A stretch of DNA of 64,000 bases from Escherichia coli 042 (GTDB lineage: Bacteria; Pseudomonadota; Gammaproteobacteria; Enterobacterales; Enterobacteriaceae), in assembly GCF_000027125.1 (NCBI RefSeq), contig NC_017626.1. One strand, given 5' to 3'. The position numbers and the translations under genes are program-made. The notes below the pieces were generated by a model, which saw nothing but the letters and a program-made list of their open reading frames with translations, did no database searches and had not been told where the DNA came from. Positions 31,786 to 48,793 of the stretch are shown piece after piece (the first letter of the stretch is position 1; the number at the start of each line of letters is the position of its first letter).

Positions 31786-32025
31786 GTGTCATTCAATATG
31801 GTTTTTAGGAGTTTCTTTAGGTTGACAATATTTAATATAGTGTCTCCACATGCGATATTTCTTAAATAATGTTTTATTATTACCACTTTTAATTCAGGGA
31901 TAATGTGAGGTTATAAACCTCAAATAATATGAGATAAATAGTGCTGCAACATTGCATTTTTGCCCCGATTTATCCATGATCGAATTGTGACATTTGTCAT
32001 ACAACGAATAGGTTTTGTACTTACT

Positions 32026-33609
32026 ATGGAATGGATTGCCGATCCGTCTATCTGGGCCGGGTTAATCACGCTGATTGTGATCGAACTGGTCCTCGGCATT
32101 GATAACCTGGTCTTTATTGCCATCCTCGCCGAAAAACTACCGCCGAAGCAGCGCGACCGCGCACGGGTTACCGGGCTGCTGCTGGCGATGTTAATGCGCC
32201 TGTTACTGCTGGCGTCAATCTCCTGGCTGGTCACCCTGACTCAACCGCTGTTCAGCTTCCGCTCGTTTACCTTTAGCGCCCGCGACTTAATCATGCTGTT
32301 TGGTGGTTTCTTCCTGTTGTTCAAAGCCACGATGGAGCTTAACGAACGGCTGGAAGGGAAAGACAGCAATAACCCCACGCAACGCAAAGGTGCGAAGTTC
32401 TGGGGGGTGGTGACACAAATTGTGGTACTGGACGCCATCTTCTCACTCGACTCAGTGATTACCGCCGTCGGGATGGTCGACCATTTACTGGTCATGATGG
32501 CCGCCGTGGTTATCGCTATCAGCCTGATGTTGATGGCCAGCAAGCCGTTAACCCAGTTCGTTAACAGTCACCCGACCATCGTTATTCTCTGCTTAAGCTT
32601 CCTGTTGATGATTGGCTTTAGCCTGGTGGCGGAAGGTTTCGGCTTCGTCATTCCGAAAGGCTACCTGTACGCTGCCATTGGTTTCTCGGTGATGATCGAG
32701 GCGCTCAATCAGTTGGCTATCTTTAACCGGCGACGTTTTCTTTCCGCTAACCAGACGCTGCGCCAGCGGACTACCGAAGCGGTAATGCGCCTGCTTAGCG
32801 GGCAAAAAGAAGATGCGGAACTGGACGCCGAAACCGCGTCCATGCTGGTGGATCATGGTAACCAGCAGATCTTTAATCCGCAGGAACGGCGGATGATTGA
32901 GCGGGTACTTAATCTTAACCAGCGTACTGTCAGCAGCATTATGACGTCGCGCCACGATATTGAGCATATCGATCTCAACGCGCCGGAAGAAGAAATCCGC
33001 CAGTTGCTGGAGCGAAATCAGCATACGCGGCTGGTGGTTACTGATGGCGATGACGCAGAAGATTTGCTCGGTGTTGTTCACGTTATCGACCTGCTACAAC
33101 AGTCTCTGCGCGGCGAACCGCTCAACCTGCGGGTGTTGATTCGCCAGCCGCTGGTGTTCCCGGAAACCTTGCCGTTGTTACCTGCCCTGGAGCAGTTCCG
33201 TAATGCTCGCACACACTTTGCTTTTGTGGTGGATGAGTTTGGTTCAGTGGAAGGGATTGTGACATTAAGTGACGTCACTGAAACCATTGCCGGTAACTTA
33301 CCGAACGAAGTGGAAGAGATCGACGCCCGCCATGATATTCAGAAGAATGCGGACGGTTCCTGGACGGCGAATGGTCATATGCCACTGGAAGATCTGGTGC
33401 AATATGTGCCGCTACCGCTGGATGAGAAACGCGAATATCACACCATTGCCGGGCTGCTGATGGAATATTTGCAGCGTATTCCAAAACCTGGCGAAGAAGT
33501 TCAGGTGGGGGATTATTTGCTTAAAACGTTGCAGGTGGAAAGCCATCGCGTGCAGAAGGTGCAGATTATACCGCTGCGTAAGGATGGCGAGATGGAGTAC
33601 GAGGTGTGA
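32026..33609 (+). CDS. yegH: inner-membrane TerC-family protein with CBS/CorC domains (UPF0053)
   Basis: Start trimmed to [13 protein letters not shown] (ATG at 32026), 527 aa; N-terminal membrane domain followed by a soluble C-terminal region. Confidence 0.85.
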
Positions 33610-42355: not shown

Positions 42356-43708
42356 GTGTTTATTGGTTTTGATTACGGTACAGCAAACTGTTCAGTGGCG
42401 GTTATGCGCGACGGTAAGCCGCAATTACTGAAAATGGAAAACGACAGCACGCTGCTGCCTTCAATGCTTTGCGCGCCAACGCGTGAAGCGGTAAGCGAAT
42501 GGCTGTACCGCCATCATGATGTTCCGGCAGACGACGATGAAACGCAGGCGCTGTTGCGTCGGGCGATTCGTTATAACCGCGAAGAAGATATCGATGTTAC
42601 GGCGAAAAGCGTGCAGTTCGGTCTTTCCTCACTGGCACAGTACATTGATGATCCAGAAGAGGTGTGGTTTGTGAAATCACCAAAATCATTCCTCGGTGCC
42701 AGCGGCTTAAAACCGCAGCAGGTAGCGCTGTTTGAGGATCTGGTCTGCGCAATGATGTTGCACATTCGCCAGCAGGCGCAGGCGCAGCTGCCGGAGGCAA
42801 TTACTCAGGCGGTGATTGGTCGCCCGATCAACTTCCAGGGGCTGGGCGGCGATGAAGCAAACGCCCAGGCGCAAGGGATTCTGGAACGCGCGGCGAAGCG
42901 TGCCGGGTTTAAGGATGTGGTATTCCAGTACGAGCCGGTCGCGGCTGGGCTGGATTACGAAGCCACCTTGCAGGAAGAAAAACGGGTGCTGGTGGTGGAT
43001 ATCGGCGGTGGTACGACTGACTGTTCATTGCTGCTGATGGGGCCGCAGTGGCGTTCGCGTCTCGATCGTGAAGCCAGCCTGCTGGGTCACAGTGGTTGCC
43101 GTATTGGCGGTAACGATCTGGATATCGCACTGGCGTTTAAAAACCTGATGCCGTTACTGGGCATGGGTGGCGAAACCGAAAAAGGCATCGCCCTGCCGAT
43201 TCTGCCGTGGTGGAATGCGGTTGCCATCAACGACGTTCCTGCACAGAGTGATTTCTACAGTAGTGCCAACGGTCGTCTGCTTAACGACCTGGTACGCGAT
43301 GCCCGCGAACCGGAAAAAGTGGCCCTGTTACAGAAAGTCTGGCGTCAGCGTTTAAGCTATCGCCTGGTACGTAGCGCAGAAGAGAGCAAAATTGCGCTTT
43401 CAAGCGTAGCGGAAACCCGCGCCTCACTGCCGTTTATCAGCGATGAACTGGCTACGCTGATTAGCCAGCAAGGGCTGGAAAGCGCCCTCAGCCAGCCACT
43501 GGCGCGGATTCTGGAACAGGTGCAACTGGCGCTGGATAACGCCCAGGAAAAACCGGACGTTATCTACCTGACCGGCGGTAGCGCCCGTTCGCCGCTGATT
43601 AAAAAAGCGCTGACAGAACAGTTGCCGGGCATTCCGATTGCAGGTGGCGATGACTTTGGCTCCGTCACCGCCGGGCTGGCACGCTGGGCGGAAGTGGTGT
43701 TTCGTTAA
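42356..43708 (+). CDS. yegD: Hsp70-family (actin-like ATPase) protein YegD
   Basis: GTG start at 42356 gives 450 aa beginning FIGFDYGTANCSVAV; ORF-track frame extended upstream to 42293. Confidence 0.85.
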   Translation: MFIGFDYGTANCSVAVMRDGKPQLLKMENDSTLLPSMLCAPTREAVSEWLYRHHDVPADDDETQALLRRAIRYNREEDIDVTAKSVQFGLSSLAQYIDDPEEVWFVKSPKSFLGASGLKPQQVALFEDLVCAMMLHIRQQAQAQLPEAITQAVIGRPINFQGLGGDEANAQAQGILERAAKRAGFKDVVFQYEPVAAGLDYEATLQEEKRVLVVDIGGGTTDCSLLLMGPQWRSRLDREASLLGHSGCRIGGNDLDIALAFKNLMPLLGMGGETEKGIALPILPWWNAVAINDVPAQSDFYSSANGRLLNDLVRDAREPEKVALLQKVWRQRLSYRLVRSAEESKIALSSVAETRASLPFISDELATLISQQGLESALSQPLARILEQVQLALDNAQEKPDVIYLTGGSARSPLIKKALTEQLPGIPIAGGDDFGSVTAGLARWAEVVFR

Positions 43709-43720
43709 TTGAAAACTGGC

Positions 43721-45667
43721 TCAGCAACGGCTTAAATCAGCCTGCGCCTGAGCCAGTTTTTCTGCCGCCTGACGTAACGGTTCCATCAACGGCATGGTCC
43801 GTGCTGGAGCATGAAGGCGGAATCGCTGCAACTCTGTCGCACCGACAGTCAGCGCCGATTCCAGCCGATGTCGTTTGGCGGCCATTTTTGCCATTACCGC
43901 TTGTCTGTCTGCAGGCGTTACCGCTTCGTTCGGCCTGAAAACAAAACGGCGTTCGCAACTCGCTTTCCAGTCGATAACCGCCTGGGTCAGATGATCACCA
44001 AAACCTTTAACTTGCTTAACGCTCCGTCGGGTAACGTCTGCCGCCGTTTCAATACCAAAGGACCGTAACGCCGCTTTACGCGCAGGGCCAACGCCGGGAA
44101 TAGAGGCAACATCAATAAAAAATCCCTCCAGAAACTTCTGCTTCTGCCGTTCCCTTGCGGTGTCCTGAAGTGCTGCCAGATCGCGCTTTTCTTCTTCCGG
44201 TAACCCAAGAATTTCGTCCTTCATTTTTTCGAGCATCGTCCGTTTGGCAATAAAACCTTCCAGCCCGCCCAACTGTTGGATCTGGCTGACTAAATGGTCA
44301 TAGTCCATTTTTGCGCGATTAAAAGCCTCTCTTCGTCGCTGGACTTCTGCTTTGTACGCTTTGCTTGTCAGGCTGCCAATAATCCAGATAGCCGCCAGCA
44401 CGGGAACCAAAATGATATAACGCGGTTCTACCTGAAGGCCGCAAAGCAACAGCGATAACGCTGACAGTGTGATCTCAATCAGAATGATGTATTCACGCCG
44501 TAACAGGCCTAAAGGAAGCGGCCTGCCAGTCGGTTGGAAATGATCGGGTAATGGCAGTTGCAATGCTGGTGGTGCTACTGACGCCATCACCATCGCCCAG
44601 ACTTTCGCCAGCACAAAATCACCGCTGGTGGTAATGACCTCTTCGCCGAGATCAATAAAATAGATAACGCCTTGATTATCCAGCGCACACCACGGGCAGT
44701 CAGTCAAATGACCAGGGTAAACATGCATTGCCGAAACGGTACATTTCTTTAACTGTTGGCGTAGTAAATCAAGTGCCGCTACCCACGCTTTTGCCGTCGG
44801 ACGCCCGGTTGCCACGCCACTTTCCGTGAATGCCTGCTGAAACATGGCTTCAACATCGCCCGGTAACATCGACAGCGGAATAGATCGTGGCGGCGGTTTT
44901 AAACCACGTCGCTGATTATCTGACGCGTAGGCATAACGGAAATGGGCAATATCCGTCTCCAGCGCATTACCCGCATCAGAGATAAGCGGTACACCAGAAT
45001 AAGGATGCCGCCCACCAAACAAGACGTGAAAAATCAGCAACGCAAGGCCAAAATTATCGTGATTCGCGGTACGTTCAAAACCGACAAATGACGACAAGGT
45101 TTGTAGCTCTGGCGGCGTAAAATGCGACACGCCGACTTCGCATAAATGCAGTGTGCCATTGGCGTTAATCTGAAAGGAGTCGCTATCAATCAACACCACT
45201 TTGCTGTCACGGCCTACCATAAAGCTGTTCTGGTTTACGTCACCCACGACATGCCCGTGCTCGTGAACCGTAGCAAAAGATGACGCAATATTGCGCGCAA
45301 CATAGAGTAGAAAATCCCACGCACAATGAGGGTAACGTTGGCGACGATGTGCCGGGCTATAGATCATATGAATCGGTTCTTTACCAGAAACTTTTGGCAT
45401 CATAAAACCGATAACTTTTCCGCCTCGTCCACCGTGAAGCGTTGCCTGCGGCCAGGCGACATAATCCAGCAACTGTGCGTCAGCTGTCGCAGCCATAAAG
45501 GCAAGTTTGTCCTGTTTTAAGGCGGGTGGCGGCGTGTGATAAATCTTGGCGACGCTATCGACAAACTCCTCGATATCATAAACCGCGCCTTCACCACCTT
45601 TACCCAGTTCACGCCCGAGAGTGGTCAATTCACCTGTCGATGTAAATACTTTTATATTTGTCTTCAT
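43721..45667 (-). CDS. yegI: protein kinase-like protein YegI
   Basis: 648 aa; N-terminal kinase-like domain, a predicted transmembrane segment and a coiled-coil/helix-hairpin-helix-like C-terminus. Confidence 0.85.
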   Translation of the reverse strand: MKTNIKVFTSTGELTTLGRELGKGGEGAVYDIEEFVDSVAKIYHTPPPALKQDKLAFMAATADAQLLDYVAWPQATLHGGRGGKVIGFMMPKVSGKEPIHMIYSPAHRRQRYPHCAWDFLLYVARNIASSFATVHEHGHVVGDVNQNSFMVGRDSKVVLIDSDSFQINANGTLHLCEVGVSHFTPPELQTLSSFVGFERTANHDNFGLALLIFHVLFGGRHPYSGVPLISDAGNALETDIAHFRYAYASDNQRRGLKPPPRSIPLSMLPGDVEAMFQQAFTESGVATGRPTAKAWVAALDLLRQQLKKCTVSAMHVYPGHLTDCPWCALDNQGVIYFIDLGEEVITTSGDFVLAKVWAMVMASVAPPALQLPLPDHFQPTGRPLPLGLLRREYIILIEITLSALSLLLCGLQVEPRYIILVPVLAAIWIIGSLTSKAYKAEVQRRREAFNRAKMDYDHLVSQIQQLGGLEGFIAKRTMLEKMKDEILGLPEEEKRDLAALQDTARERQKQKFLEGFFIDVASIPGVGPARKAALRSFGIETAADVTRRSVKQVKGFGDHLTQAVIDWKASCERRFVFRPNEAVTPADRQAVMAKMAAKRHRLESALTVGATELQRFRLHAPARTMPLMEPLRQAAEKLAQAQADLSRC

Positions 45668-45867
45668 AATGTTTCAAGGGCAGTCATATTATATTTTAAT
45701 GAATAATAACACTGCCCATTATAATTATTTCTATATTGGAAGAGTCCCACTCAAGAATAAAAATGATAATGCAATTTCATCAGGATACAATTCAATTCCA
45801 ACCTGATAATGATTCACTTCCACAGGTTTTTTGCTAACTTTTACTACACAGGGATTCTGGAGAAAAA

Positions 45868-46329
45868 ATGAAAAAGATATTACTTATGTTGAGTCTGCTA
45901 TTTTTTACTACCGCGGGCTTTAGTGAAGTTTCGGATACGTTAGTGACGGGAGGTTATGATAAACAAGCGATGTCTGACGCCATTCAACATGCGCGGAAAG
46001 AAACCGATCAATTCATCGAAGTTATGAATAAAAAAGATGCAGATACTTTCGCAGTCAAAGCCCCGATAACCGATCACGGAAGAACCGAGCATTTCTGGCT
46101 TACGGATGTCACTTATTCTAACGGCATATTTATTGGCGTAATAAGCAATGACCCTGGTATTGTTACAAACGTAGAATATGGTCAGGAGTGGAAAATCAAG
46201 AAAGAAGATATTTCAGACTGGATGTATACGCGCGGGGATAAAATTTACGGCGGTTATACCATTGATCCTTTATTGGTCACCTATCCAAAAGAAGAAGCCG
46301 ACGAGCTAAGAGCAAAATTAGTTCGCTAA
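45868..46329 (+). CDS. yegJ: DUF2314-family secreted protein YegJ
   Basis: 153 aa with an N-terminal signal peptide (MKKILLMLSLLFFTTAGFS). Confidence 0.8.
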   Translation: MKKILLMLSLLFFTTAGFSEVSDTLVTGGYDKQAMSDAIQHARKETDQFIEVMNKKDADTFAVKAPITDHGRTEHFWLTDVTYSNGIFIGVISNDPGIVTNVEYGQEWKIKKEDISDWMYTRGDKIYGGYTIDPLLVTYPKEEADELRAKLVR

Positions 46330-46356
46330 CCAGCCATTATATTGATTGCTTAAACT

Positions 46357-46384
46357 GGCGGTTGAACTGTTGTCTTCAACCGCC
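46357..46384. terminator. hairpin between convergent yegJ and yegK (possible bidirectional terminator)
   Basis: GGCGGTTGAA-ctgttgtc-TTCAACCGCC, a 10-bp perfect stem. Confidence 0.4.
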
Positions 46385-46393
46385 ATGCGATGT

Positions 46394-47155
46394 TCATTCT
46401 GTCCACAGCGCCAGTGCCAACGTTTTATCATCATCGGTACGCTCGTTTACCGCCGGGCTGGACAAAAACTGCTTTAACAATTCAGGTAATAAATCGAGTT
46501 GTTCCTGCGTTGCTGACGCCAGCCCATTGAAAAACGGGGTAAAGAAAGGCACATGGGGAGAATTATCCAGCATATTTAACGCCAGCCGCTGGATACCATC
46601 CGTAAAAGCTGCAACTTTGTGCGCACGCTCAGTGCTGGTGAAAGTTTCCAGTCTGGAAACCGCATCTTCATCAGTAATGAAGTGTGTCATATTGGCATAT
46701 TCACCCACCATCGGCGTGAGCGGCAGTTGCAGACCGTGCCCCAAATCTACCACCACGCCGCCATCGCCAATCTGCATAATCAGGGTGCCATTAGCTGATG
46801 AAATCAATCCCATAAACGTGCAGGCAAAATCTCGAACAGCTAATTCTTTGGCTTCCGCCTCGGCAAAAAGTCGCTGACGAATAGTCAGCACAATATCCGT
46901 TGCGAGGACATCATTAAGCCCAAATTCCCCGCCCTGCACTTTTTGCATCATATAAGCCATCGCTTCATTGACGGCAAGCATCGCACCTTCGCCACCCTGC
47001 GAGACGCTACCTGCGCCATCGGCGACAAATAACGTCAATAATGGCTGCTGGTCATTTAGCCAGGCAACCTGCATCTGGCAGGCATCCTGGCAAGGCAAGT
47101 CCGCGCTGATGTGCGACGTTCCAACGGTTGATGCATAGACCAGACGCCAGCTCAC
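46394..47155 (-). CDS. yegK: PP2C-family Ser/Thr protein phosphatase YegK
   Basis: 253 aa; 4-nt overlap with yegL. Confidence 0.85.
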
Positions 47156-47811
47156 ACTGACGTCCAGCCTTTTGGCGCTTCCAGCACAACTTCCGTTCCC
47201 GGCGTGGAGCGGGAAACCGAACGCAGTGAACTGGATAACCAGCTAAACAGTTCACGGAATTGTAATCCCTGCAGTGGCAAAGGCTGACGAACGCTGATTT
47301 GTGCCAAAGTCTTCATATCCGCCCCCTGAACACCGATGGAAAAGAAGGCAAACTTCTTATCTTCTTCCCCCTGAAACACTTTGTTGGCGGCAGCCTGCCA
47401 CTCATCGGTTGGAGCGCCATCGGTGATCAGGAAAATCCACGGGCGATAATACGAAATACCATTTGCACGATACTCACGTTTGCGCTCCTCTACCATATCC
47501 AGGGCTTTGGTAATGGCAGCGCCCATTGGTGTATCGCCCTGGGCAAACAGGATGGGTGGGAAAAAATTAGCGGCGCTGGTAAAGGGTTGTTCCACATGCA
47601 CCGGGCCGAACGTCACAATGCCGAGTTCCACTCTTTTTAAGGCCAGCGGGTCGGCAAGCAGCTCATCGCGAAAGGTAACCAATCCGGCATTAAGTTCATT
47701 AATAGGTCTTCCGCTCATCGAGCCAGAAACATCCAGCAACAAAATGCAGGGGCAACGTGGTTCCGGGTTACTGGCAAAATCGCTGGTGGCAAACATGATT
47801 TGTTCGCTCAT
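47152..47811 (-). CDS. yegL: von Willebrand factor A domain protein YegL
   Basis: 219 aa; vWA MIDAS-like motif DVSGSMSG near the N-terminus. Confidence 0.85.
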
Positions 47812-47992
47812 AAGAAATCCTTTCTTAGAGAATTATTGAGGTCCGGTATCATACCGATTGCAATAATGAAATAAGAGCAAACGAAGAAACTTTCAGAATT
47901 AGGCCCGGCGGCGCAGAAAATTTTGCTATTCGCCTCGCAAGAACGAAGAGCCGTCGATTGACACTAAGGGCGGAGTGACATAATTTCAGGAG

Positions 47993-48134
47993 TGAGGGTT
48001 AGGGAGAGGTTTCCCCCTCCCCCTGGTGTTCTTAGTAAGCCTGGAAGCTAATCACTAAGAGTATCACCAGTATGATGACGTGCTTCATCATAACCCTTTC
48101 CTTATTAAAAGCCCTCTTCTCCGGGAGAGGGTTT
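47993..48134 (+). ncRNA. sibA: Sib antisense sRNA (type I antitoxin), unit 1 (SibA-like); coordinates approximate
   Basis: Sigma70-like promoter TTGACA (47958-47963), 17-nt spacer, TAATTT; fully antisense to ibs unit 1; ends at a stem-loop CCCTCT...AGAGGG followed by T residues. Confidence 0.7.
48032..48091 (-). CDS. ibsA: Ibs type I toxin peptide, 19 aa (MMKHVIILVILLVISFQAY)
   Basis: Manual translation of the minus strand; hydrophobic Ibs-family peptide encoded opposite the Sib RNA. Confidence 0.8.
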   Translation of the reverse strand: MMKHVIILVILLVISFQAY

Positions 48135-48327
48135 CCCGTTTCAGCGTCCCGCTGAAATCGTCGGCTTACCTCCTTTCGCCCTGAATGCAGTCTATCGCTA
48201 ACGCGTGAACAAAATAGTTTCCTCTGTGATTATTGCGTAACGACTCGCAAAGAATATTTGCTGGCAGGATCGCAGACTGCAAAGCCTGCAGATTGACAAT
48301 CTTATCGTGAAGGCATACTTTCAGGAG

Positions 48328-48465
48328 TGAGGGTAGAGCGGGGTTTCCCCCGCCCTGGTAGTCTTAGTATGCTGGGTAGCTAATCACTAAGAGCACCACG
48401 ATGATGAGTATCTTCATCATGACCCTTTCCTTATTTAAGGCCCCTTCCTCGGGAGGGGCTTTCCC
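48328..48465 (+). ncRNA. sibB: Sib antisense sRNA, unit 2 (SibB-like); coordinates approximate
   Basis: Promoter TTGACA (48293-48298), 17-nt spacer, TACTTT; terminator stem GCCCCT...AGGGGC plus T-run. Confidence 0.7.
48364..48420 (-). CDS. ibsB: Ibs type I toxin peptide, 18 aa (MMKILIIVVLLVISYPAY)
   Basis: Manual translation of the minus strand, antisense to Sib unit 2. Confidence 0.75.
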   Translation of the reverse strand: MMKILIIVVLLVISYPAY

Positions 48466-48655
48466 GTTTCAGCGTCCCGCTGAAATCGTCGGCTTACCTC
48501 CTTTCGCCCTGAATGCAGTCTATCGCTGACTTGCGGATAAAATAGTTTCCAGTGTGATTATTGCGTAACGTCTCGCAAAGAATATTTGCTGGCAGGATCG
48601 CAGACTGCAAAGCCTGCAGATTGACAATCTTATCGTGAAGGCATACTTTCAGGAG

Positions 48656-48793
48656 TGAGGGTAGAGCGGGGTTTCCCCCGCCCTGGTAGTCTTAGTAAGC
48701 TGGCCAGCTAATGACTAAGAGCACCACGATGATGAGTAGCTTCATCATGACCCTTTCCTTATTTATGGCCCCTTCCTCGGGAGGGGCTTTCCC
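48656..48793 (+). ncRNA. Sib antisense sRNA, unit 3 (additional SibB-like copy); coordinates approximate
   Basis: Near-identical to unit 2 with a 328-bp period; promoter and terminator are conserved. Confidence 0.65.
48692..48748 (-). CDS. Ibs type I toxin peptide, 18 aa (MMKLLIIVVLLVISWPAY)
   Basis: Manual translation; differs from the unit 2 peptide at two positions. Confidence 0.75.
   Translation of the reverse strand: MMKLLIIVVLLVISWPAY

Follow-up and report, generated by a model that had tools for sequence, protein, structure and literature searches.

The Escherichia coli genes yegL, pphC (also yegK) and yegI form a three-gene cassette that encodes a vWA protein, a PP2C-type phosphatase and an inner-membrane serine/threonine (Ser/Thr) kinase, and that in strain 042 is interrupted by an unrelated gene, yegJ. 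We analysed this locus in a 64,000-nucleotide (nt) stretch of the strain 042 genome (NC_017626.1; hereafter the window, to whose coordinates all positions refer unless a locus is named). On the minus strand the window carries yegL (47152-47811; 219 amino acids (aa)), the first cassette gene, then pphC (46394-47155; 253 aa, GTG start) and, as the third gene, yegI (43721-45667; 648 aa); yegJ (45868-46329; 153 aa, DUF2314) lies between the last two on the plus strand, divergent from yegI and convergent with pphC. Our preferred reading, which we hold with slightly less than even confidence, is that yegL–pphC–yegI is an autonomous, horizontally transferred phospho-switch of three genes, built like the TerY-P systems from different protein families, and that its role likely lies in conflict with invading DNA or in DNA-stress signalling.

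The cassette behaves as a unit far beyond Escherichia. In a library clustered at 50% identity, YegI matched 9717 cluster representatives at E <= 1e-3 and 3227 at E <= 1e-30, and the best matches were mostly about 645 aa long and aligned end to end. Identity fell from 90% in E. marmotae to 62% in Klebsiella spallanzanii and K. aerogenes and 60% in Piscinibacter and Chromobacterium; relatives, sampled at one genome per species, were spread over the Beta-, Gamma- and Deltaproteobacteria, Planctomycetota, Acidobacteriota and Cyanobacteria, an actinobacterium and the archaeal Methanoregula. Every non-Escherichia locus with enough sequence (67 of 67) had the three genes on one strand in the order YegL, PphC, YegI, and in 43 of these 67 the end of YegL abutted or overlapped the start of PphC. 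The corresponding junction in strain 042 is a 4-nt overlap, GTGA, of the yegL stop and the pphC start (coding strand ...TCA GTG TGA). Within E. coli itself, 65% of genomes carry the contiguous triad, without yegJ. A fourth partner was sought among the neighbours: no other gene family occurred in more than 11 of 80 loci, the commonest reflecting Escherichia synteny or generic families, and the commonest Pfam family had 4 members among the 146 nearest-neighbour proteins. The unit is an autonomous, horizontally mobile vWA–PP2C–kinase cassette without a conserved fourth gene.

Full-length homologues were also found on 83 plasmid records, 46 of them conjugative, including Pseudomonas megaplasmids and plasmids of Agrobacterium and Rhizobium. 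The locus also occurs on several 'plasmid' records of 1.4-4.9 Mb that bear the label E. coli; these are evidently chromosomes or chromosome fragments, and because chromosomes have been filed as plasmids, the E. coli counts in this collection are unreliable. Phage genomes yielded only one weak, partial kinase match, so the cassette is not phage-borne.

The surroundings of the cassette outside Escherichia are frequently those of defence or mobile-element genes. In Piscinibacter its neighbours are NYN/OST-HTH, SLFN-like helicase, MazG-like, McrA-like, HIT and SNase genes, followed by BrxR and JetB; in K. spallanzanii BrnA, GmrSD, SymE and a type I restriction-modification (R-M) system; and in Chromobacterium AbiH, a KAP NTPase and Tn7-like TniQ, TniB and transposase genes. 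One metagenomic contig (L091) has HsdR/S/M and Mrr directly downstream, another locus (L092) has SNase genes, a HipA-like gene and many unannotated open reading frames (ORFs), a Pseudomonas megaplasmid has umuDC-like and transfer genes, and a Rhizobium plasmid has a DUF262 gene along with a His-Xaa-Ser system. R-M, GmrSD, Mrr or Wadjet genes adjoin the triad in several other hosts, though not in all (not at locus L090), and a PADLOC search of the 146 nearest-neighbour proteins gave GajA, JetA and AriA among the matches listed. Qualitatively, the pattern is that of a set of accessory genes that is frequently found with defence islands. The preliminary description of this DNA, made from sequence alone, had proposed the locus as a candidate defence or stress module; the proposal is a reasonable one, because the cassette often sits among defence or mobile-element genes in other organisms.

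Several betaproteobacterial loci have a further small ORF of 69-70 aa in front of the triad (L004 5719-6474; L092 5700-6501; L091 6075-6284), and in two of them it is followed by an SNase-like gene with a signal-peptide-like start. The SNase family accounted for 3 of the 146 nearest neighbours, among the matches listed, and occurred in 5 of the 80 loci; the gene may be a lineage-specific accessory or a mobile-element marker. At locus L033 (1749-9971) the vWA and PP2C genes are separated by an insert of about 6.8 kb, which parallels the interruption by yegJ, and on two Thiotrichales contigs (L067 and L069) a YegI relative is encoded without a neighbouring vWA or PP2C gene.

The interruption in strain 042 has sharp limits. 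Alignment to O157 breaks at window positions 45613 and 46403, and between these points a 789-base-pair (bp) segment (45614-46402; GC 0.38) replaces the 53-bp pphC/yegI junction of strains without yegJ, altering the two C-terminal residues of PphC and the initial ~16 residues of YegI; the YegI N-terminus so replaced still resembles a genuine, diverged YegI N-terminus. No convincing direct or inverted repeats were found at the ends of the segment. The polymorphism is known: yegJ is present in K-12 and absent from B strains and O157, in which pphC and yegI overlap by 4 nt (10.1101/303594, 10.1101/819920). We matched yegJ in 1924 of 5426 complete E. coli genomes (35%), and YegJ was absent from 76 of 76 non-E. 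coli triad loci; tblastn found no YegJ in the 80 other-species loci encoding a YegI relative, among them other Escherichia with a contiguous triad, and found YegD in those 80 loci in Escherichia only. The closest YegJ outside E. coli, at 75% identity, is that of Superficieibacter electus (L089 4453-6462, compared with window 42356-46329), where the gene immediately follows yegD, downstream and on the same strand, in the interval from alkA–yegD to mdtA, at a site with no triad. Nucleotide identity of the Superficieibacter genes to the window is 75% for yegJ, 78% for yegD and 74.5% for mdtA. Given this placement and an identity equal to that of yegD and mdtA, yegJ looks like an old resident of the yegD–mdtA interval that is linked to yegD, and yegD–yegJ may be an ancestral pair; that YegJ has been reported to induce yegD agrees with this. 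The preliminary description had counted yegJ into the module; as an insertion present in 35% of E. coli and absent from triads outside that species, it lies outside it.

YegI has the domain make-up of a membrane-bound kinase with an unusual tail. The preliminary description had proposed a domain search, and such a search found PP2C (E 1.7e-50), VWA (E 6e-10) and DUF2314 (E 5.5e-25) in the expected proteins, with no Pfam Pkinase (PF00069) match to YegI even at E <= 10, although some YegI orthologues have a precomputed PF00069 match. The sole Pfam match of YegI was HHH_5 at residues 517-553, with a sub-threshold score of 21.7 bits (cut-off 27). Nevertheless, the kinase call of that description held. 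In the AlphaFold model (pLDDT 95.0, pTM 0.83), residues 1-305 (44753-45667, minus strand) adopt a Hanks-type fold with an atypical VIGDVNQ catalytic loop and DSD in place of DFG; Foldseek matched this domain to PknB, CaMKII, BRAF and others with probability 1.00 and a target TM-score of ~0.7, and G24, K41, D143, N145, D161 and E187 were invariant across 115 homologues. YegI is a Hanks-type kinase despite the missing Pkinase match, because its model superposes on PknB and other Hanks kinases, the catalytic residues K41, D143 and D161 are invariant and kinase activity has been published; Pfam misses it because of its atypical motifs, the DSD and the VIGDVNQ loop.

The biochemistry of the kinase is established. 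YegI is an active, Mn2+-preferring Ser/Thr kinase with atypical motifs, including DSD for DFG, that autophosphorylates three activation-loop serines, and the K39D and D141N variants, equivalents of catalytic residues, are inactive (10.1101/819920). It crosses the inner membrane twice and has its two termini in the cytoplasm, and its autophosphorylation follows second-order kinetics, which were read as consistent with a dimer (10.1101/819920).

Beyond the kinase domain the model shows a series of further elements. Directly after it, two short strands and a helix carry a predicted zinc-binding module (residues 306-335; 44663-44752, minus strand), whose C309, H315, C324 and C327 are invariant in the 115 homologues. 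A variable linker then leads to a membrane hairpin at residues ~391-440 (44348-44497, minus strand), with model helices at 391-410 and from 420 onward; its sequence varies and stays hydrophobic in homologues, and the modelled hairpin agrees with the membrane segments mapped by PhoA–LacZ fusions (10.1101/819920). Long helices connect the hairpin to a compact helical domain at residues ~513-575 (43943-44131, minus strand), the site of the HHH_5 match. The sequence profile of this region matched the HhH regions of archaeal L32e, Pol IV and REV1, with L32e and Pol IV at E 0.007-0.1, and when the C-terminal 154 residues were modelled alone (pLDDT 94.9), nearly all of the top Foldseek neighbours were (HhH)2 domains: the N-terminal domain of Rad51/Dmc1, Hjm, DisA, Hef, RuvA and ComEA. 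Foldseek probabilities reached 0.99 with E values above 0.1, the latter because the domain is small. Both the profile and the structural neighbours suggest that the tail is a cytoplasmic (HhH)2 domain, of the sort that binds DNA without sequence specificity. The protein ends in a single long helix in both models (residues 585-647; 43727-43915, minus strand), probably a coiled-coil or dimerisation element.

The other two products of the cassette were assigned directly from Pfam. PphC scored 171.9 bits against PP2C_2 (cut-off 24), and it is an active, Mn-dependent PP2C-like phosphatase that removes the phosphates of YegI (10.1101/303594). YegL is the best conserved of the three, with a median identity to non-Escherichia orthologues of 66%, compared with 41% for PphC and 42% for YegI. 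Its MIDAS residues D27, S29, S31, T94 and D131 were invariant in 72 of 72 orthologues, and to judge from these residues the metal site is intact. Near its C-terminus YegL carries the motif W191-L-S193-x-S195...V-S200-x-S202-x-P-G (47197-47241, minus strand), whose serines are conserved across phyla, S193, S195, S200 and S202 each being kept in 71 of 72 orthologues; the motif is not present in the canonical TerY of E. coli G3/10. We regard the four serines as a candidate phospho-acceptor or interaction motif.

The same three domain types define TerY-P, a triad in which a vWA protein of the TerY kind and a PP2C phosphatase are combined with a Ser/Thr kinase that has a zinc ribbon fused to its C-terminus (PMC11090510); the triad has been proposed to act as a metal-sensing phosphorylation switch tied to DNA-processing and restriction systems (PMC11090510, PMC4978471). 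TerY-P-like modules that stand alone and have an OB-fold kinase have been validated as anti-phage systems (PMC11090510, PMC7699616), active against T7-like phages (PMC7699616) and Autographiviridae (PMC10889362). As a positive control we used the TerY-P system of E. coli G3/10 that was cloned for the phage assays, recovered via the start of its published sequence (L088 8001-11260); it encodes a 277-aa vWA protein, a 239-aa PP2C and a 561-aa kinase, lies beside a type I R-M system in a mobile island, and occurs in 4 of 5426 E. coli genomes. Because no NCBIfam model matches even these validated proteins, PADLOC together with the control served as the membership test. On the control, PADLOC scored 572.5 bits for TerY (PDLC02224), 357.8 for PP2C (PDLC02222) and 877.9 for STK_OB (PDLC02223), whereas on the yeg proteins the TerY model gave 13.1 bits (E 0.013) on YegL, the PP2C model no match on PphC even at E <= 10, and the STK_OB model no match on YegI. 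BLASTP against the G3/10 proteins stayed at noise level (YegL E 0.006, PphC no alignment, YegI E 0.016). Current PADLOC defence-annotation models thus do not call yegL–pphC–yegI. The preliminary description had likened the genes to a TerY-P-type triad: the architecture, zinc module included, stands (PMC11090510), and membership in the validated TerY-P family does not. The cassette has the TerY-P layout and lies outside that family.

Likeness and difference can be set out further. Both systems run vWA (MIDAS), PP2C and Ser/Thr kinase in the same order, both kinases carry a C-terminal nucleic-acid-binding module (predicted for YegI), and both are often found beside R-M genes. The proteins differ in length (277, 239 and 561 aa compared with 219, 253 and 648 aa for YegL, PphC and YegI), and the G3/10 kinase, a soluble protein, combines an OB fold with an S/T-rich tail and has no zinc site, no membrane hairpin and no HhH. 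In E. coli, TerY-P is a rare accessory system, whereas yegL–pphC–yegI is core, and of the two only TerY-P has shown anti-phage activity. Under the broad architectural definition of TerY-P, the vWA protein with a MIDAS, the PP2C and the kinase with a zinc-ribbon-like site can all be recognised in YegL, PphC and YegI, although the membrane hairpin and the putative (HhH)2 extension of YegI go beyond the summary definition. In CoCoNuT and in H. pylori, TerY-P is embedded in larger McrBC-type operons, while yegL–pphC–yegI stands alone. A 'TerY-P variant' is active in P. aeruginosa (PMC10889362); it could not be identified as YegI-type, and no P. aeruginosa protein was found among the best 120 matches to the YegI homologue of a Pseudomonas plasmid. 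None of the papers naming the yeg genes links them to TerY-P or phages.

More distant relations exist among bacterial signalling proteins. With the pairs PknB/PstP, PrkC/PrpC and Stk1/Stp1 the YegI/PphC pair shares the kinase fold, activation-loop autophosphorylation, a co-operonic PP2C that reverses it and a membrane anchor; PknB-type kinases, however, have extracellular PASTA domains or other sensors, whereas YegI has both ends in the cytoplasm with a putative DNA-binding tail, atypical motifs (DSD, VIGDVNQ) and a constant coupling to a vWA gene. DisA and ComEA, structural neighbours of the YegI tail, likewise place an (HhH)2 module on a signalling or membrane-anchored protein. Their likeness to YegI is limited to this small module and is statistically weak (E > 0.1); the output of DisA is a diadenylate cyclase, ComEA has none, and the HhH of ComEA lies outside the cytoplasm.

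In E. coli the locus is core and holds a fixed position. The 4.1-kb region was matched in 5416 of 5426 complete genomes (99.8%), in 5392 of them at >=80% coverage, and some genomes have insertion sequences (IS) in it. Comparison of three E. coli lineages gave dN/dS values of 0.04-0.19 for all three triad genes, which on this measure are genuine and evolve under purifying selection. In the triad, dS is roughly double the values for alkA, yegD and mdtA and peaks in pphC (0.21-0.30, compared with 0.05-0.11 in flanking genes, for the window against loci L002 and L003). Since dN/dS is low despite the raised dS, we rejected diversifying selection in favour of older alleles or recombination. The nucleotide identity of pphC between lineages is only 92-94%, and its divergence suggests that old alleles or imported segments are present at this gene.

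We suggest that a dimeric YegI in the inner membrane would detect DNA there through its (HhH)2 tail, the DNA being either incoming phage or plasmid DNA or abnormal chromosomal DNA. Binding would drive trans-autophosphorylation of YegI, and the active kinase could then phosphorylate YegL, with S193, S195, S200 and S202 as candidate sites, and possibly other proteins; YegL, as a MIDAS protein, would deliver the output, while PphC would keep the switch off and reset it. A DNA-related output has independent support, because endogenous DNA damage rises when YegI or, separately, YegL is overproduced (10.1101/354589). We favour a role against invading DNA because the distribution is patchy, plasmid-borne and often defence-adjacent, and a defence or DNA-surveillance role is plausible. 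The stronger proposal, that the cassette is a widespread immune or DNA-surveillance system in which an (HhH)2 kinase senses DNA at the membrane and signals through a vWA protein under a PP2C off-switch, we consider possible though rather doubtful.

Several observations speak against the reading that the cassette acts in conflict with invading DNA. A defence system is usually an accessory element, and this locus is core in E. coli and largely silent under laboratory conditions. It is present in phage-sensitive laboratory hosts that serve as negative controls in defence assays, among them K-12 MG1655, the recipient into which defence systems, TerY-P included, are cloned for testing. E. coli B, whose operon is uninterrupted, is the classical host of the T phages. 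The only phosphorylation substrates shown are YegI itself and PphC, and it is we who infer phosphorylation of YegL and DNA binding by the tail, for which the HHH_5 score lies below the Pfam threshold and the Foldseek E values exceed 0.1; the four conserved serines of YegL may just line a structural helix of the vWA fold. The neighbour survey consists of family counts, with neither a matched control nor an enrichment statistic, and at locus L090 the neighbours are housekeeping genes only.

The serious rival, which we judge fairly unlikely, is that YegI and PphC are a domesticated pair for housekeeping or stress signalling (stationary phase, envelope or DNA damage, for example) with ordinary substrates and no part in foreign-DNA conflict. 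It is serious because the locus is core in E. coli, largely silent and present in phage-sensitive hosts. Many bacterial Hanks kinase/PP2C pairs regulate growth and envelope. The fixed position and purifying selection in E. coli agree with such a role, as does the homologue among housekeeping genes (L090); yegI expression is very low and detected only in stationary phase (10.1101/819920); and yegI mutated recurrently in the long-term evolution experiment (10.1101/303594), a phage-free culture in which one yegI mutation was beneficial and swept. A housekeeping pair sits less well with the patchy distribution outside Escherichia and the sharp drop in identity, with the absence of the cassette from most Enterobacteriaceae (Superficieibacter has yegD-yegJ-...-mdtA without the triad), with its presence on conjugative plasmids and in defence islands, and with three genes that are always together, independently of the host genome. 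Moreover, YegI has no extracytoplasmic sensor, and its only ligand-type domain is the putative DNA-binding one. A further possibility is that the cassette, once acquired horizontally, has been silenced and survives in E. coli as a relic that now lacks a function, with the insertion of yegJ as one step in its decay; the H-NS site in the yegI/yegJ spacer, the interruption of the operon in 35% of genomes and the IS insertions in some would fit. We regard this as improbable, for the three genes keep dN/dS at 0.04-0.19 and full length in 5392 of 5426 genomes, both enzymes are active, overproduction has phenotypes and a yegI allele swept under selection.

Two further explanations concern what the cassette belongs to and what belongs to it. 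If yegL–pphC–yegI were a genuine member of the TerY-P anti-phage system, it would protect E. coli against T7-like phages likewise. The same domain types in the same order, the reported activity of TerY-P against T7-like phages (PMC7699616) and Autographiviridae (PMC10889362) and the weak touch of the PADLOC TerY model on YegL (E 0.013) speak for it, but PADLOC falls from 572, 358 and 878 bits on G3/10 to 13, none and none (BLASTP E 0.006, none and 0.016), and the YegI tail has a zinc site, membrane hairpin and HhH in place of the OB fold. The validated system occurs in 4 of 5426 genomes, in a mobile island by a type I R-M system, compared with 5416 of 5426 for yegL–pphC–yegI, and TerY-P was assayed by cloning into MG1655, which already carried yegL–pphC–yegJ–yegI. 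At the family level, membership is refuted by PADLOC with its control, by BLASTP and by the tail architecture, and we hold this explanation to be very improbable. The least credible to us is that yegJ is a functional fourth component of a kinase/phosphatase/vWA/DUF2314 module. The gene is embedded between pphC and yegI, and a 2026 study, which reports that YegJ binds the N-terminal domain of RNase E and that its overproduction damages the envelope and induces yegD, speculates that YegJ functions within the same pathway as the kinase and phosphatase genes (PMC13232886). Against this stand its absence from 76 of 76 non-E. coli triad loci and from 65% of E. coli genomes, the Superficieibacter yegJ that follows yegD with no triad and has diverged as yegD and mdtA have, and the induction of yegD itself, which ties yegJ to yegD and not to the triad (PMC13232886).

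Much of the individual gene biology preceded this work. The locus, its enzymes and the yegJ polymorphism are in the literature, and 'largely unknown function', the wording of the preliminary description, understates that literature, since both enzymes have been biochemically characterised (10.1101/303594, 10.1101/819920); YegI and PphC have been described as the only Hanks-type kinase/PP2C pair of E. coli. Added here are the genome counts of triad and yegJ, the exclusion of yegJ, the mobile three-gene unit, the predicted domain make-up of YegI and the non-membership in the TerY-P family. A mobile unit whose vWA protein is the most conserved, from which yegJ is excluded and whose kinase has a predicted DNA-binding tail leaves few hypotheses: DNA sensing at the membrane, YegL as the substrate and conflict with foreign DNA. 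The TerY-P anti-phage label cannot be transferred by architecture alone, because the validated system and the yeg locus share no family-level similarity. Were the defence reading true, a family of >3,000 sequence clusters (at 50% identity) would join the known immune systems, and laboratory strains of E. coli would carry a silent defence against phages or conjugative plasmids that PADLOC and NCBIfam do not recognise.

The cassette is core and silent in E. coli, and in yegJ-carrying strains yegI is probably cut off from the other two genes and expressed from its own promoter. The pphC locus is not detectably transcribed (10.1101/303594). Between the convergent stops of yegJ and pphC lies a perfect 11-bp inverted repeat (46356-46385; 100% complementary, 8-nt loop), likely a bidirectional terminator that would uncouple yegI from yegL–pphC; given this repeat, yegI is probably transcribed alone in these strains, from the AT-rich spacer that separates it from the divergent yegJ (45668-45867) and carries the promoters of both genes. 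A promoter-like ATGATA-17-TACAAT (45763-45791, plus strand) is the same as the yegJ promoter listed for K-12, and the K-12 yegI promoter TTGTTA-18-TATAAC has no exact copy in strain 042. In K-12 the spacer binds RpoD holoenzyme and contains an H-NS site (PMC3946193).

YegJ itself is a clear DUF2314 protein (PF10077; 88.5 bits, cut-off 22). Its description as divergent and secreted needs qualifying: it is divergent from yegI and convergent with pphC, and export is suggested by its N-terminus (MKKILLMLSLLFFTTAGFS), which reads as Sec-type and signal-peptide-like. The study of its interaction with RNase E treated YegJ as cytoplasmic; the two-hybrid prey fragment had residue 16 as its first, tagging of the N-terminus did not succeed, and overproduction set off Cpx/Psp envelope stress (PMC13232886). 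In view of the Sec-type N-terminus, the start of the prey at residue 16, the failed N-terminal tagging and the Cpx/Psp stress, the reported interaction may trace to a fragment that lacked its signal and was mislocalised.

The four ORFs occupy exactly the positions that the preliminary description had given from the ORF list of the window, and its 4-nt yegK/yegL overlap and Sib/ibs neighbours were likewise exact to the base. The yegJ segment is 100% identical in E. coli O169:H41 Res13-Lact-PER13-34, where RefSeq names the genes yegI, yegJ, pphC and yegL and where dgcE, alkA and yegD flank the locus on one side and ibs and mdtABC on the other. Directly adjoining yegL, at 47958-48763, are three SibRNA/ibs type I toxin-antitoxin repeats on the plus strand (47958-48106, 48293-48435 and 48621-48763; Rfam SIB_RNA 149.5, 140.8 and 140.2 bits), and ibs coding sequences are annotated in Res13-Lact-PER13-34. 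They are neighbours outside the cassette: no Sib/ibs was found beside the triad in the non-Escherichia neighbourhoods examined, so this Escherichia-specific feature, which had been taken as a pointer to defence, is uninformative about the cassette elsewhere. Their copy number differs among strains, as there are three in 042 and O157 and the K-12 annotation shows two ibs genes at the locus. No ter (tellurite-resistance) genes are adjacent to the triad at the 042 locus. The TerC-family gene yegH lies ~10 kb from this TerY-like triad (window approx. 32000-33600; L003 864-2447), a closeness that is probably coincidence because the unrelated asmA, dcd, udk, dgcE, alkA and yegD intervene. Upstream, dgcE (yegE), which encodes a large diguanylate cyclase, is annotated as frameshifted in O157:H7 TT12A (L002 235-3553).

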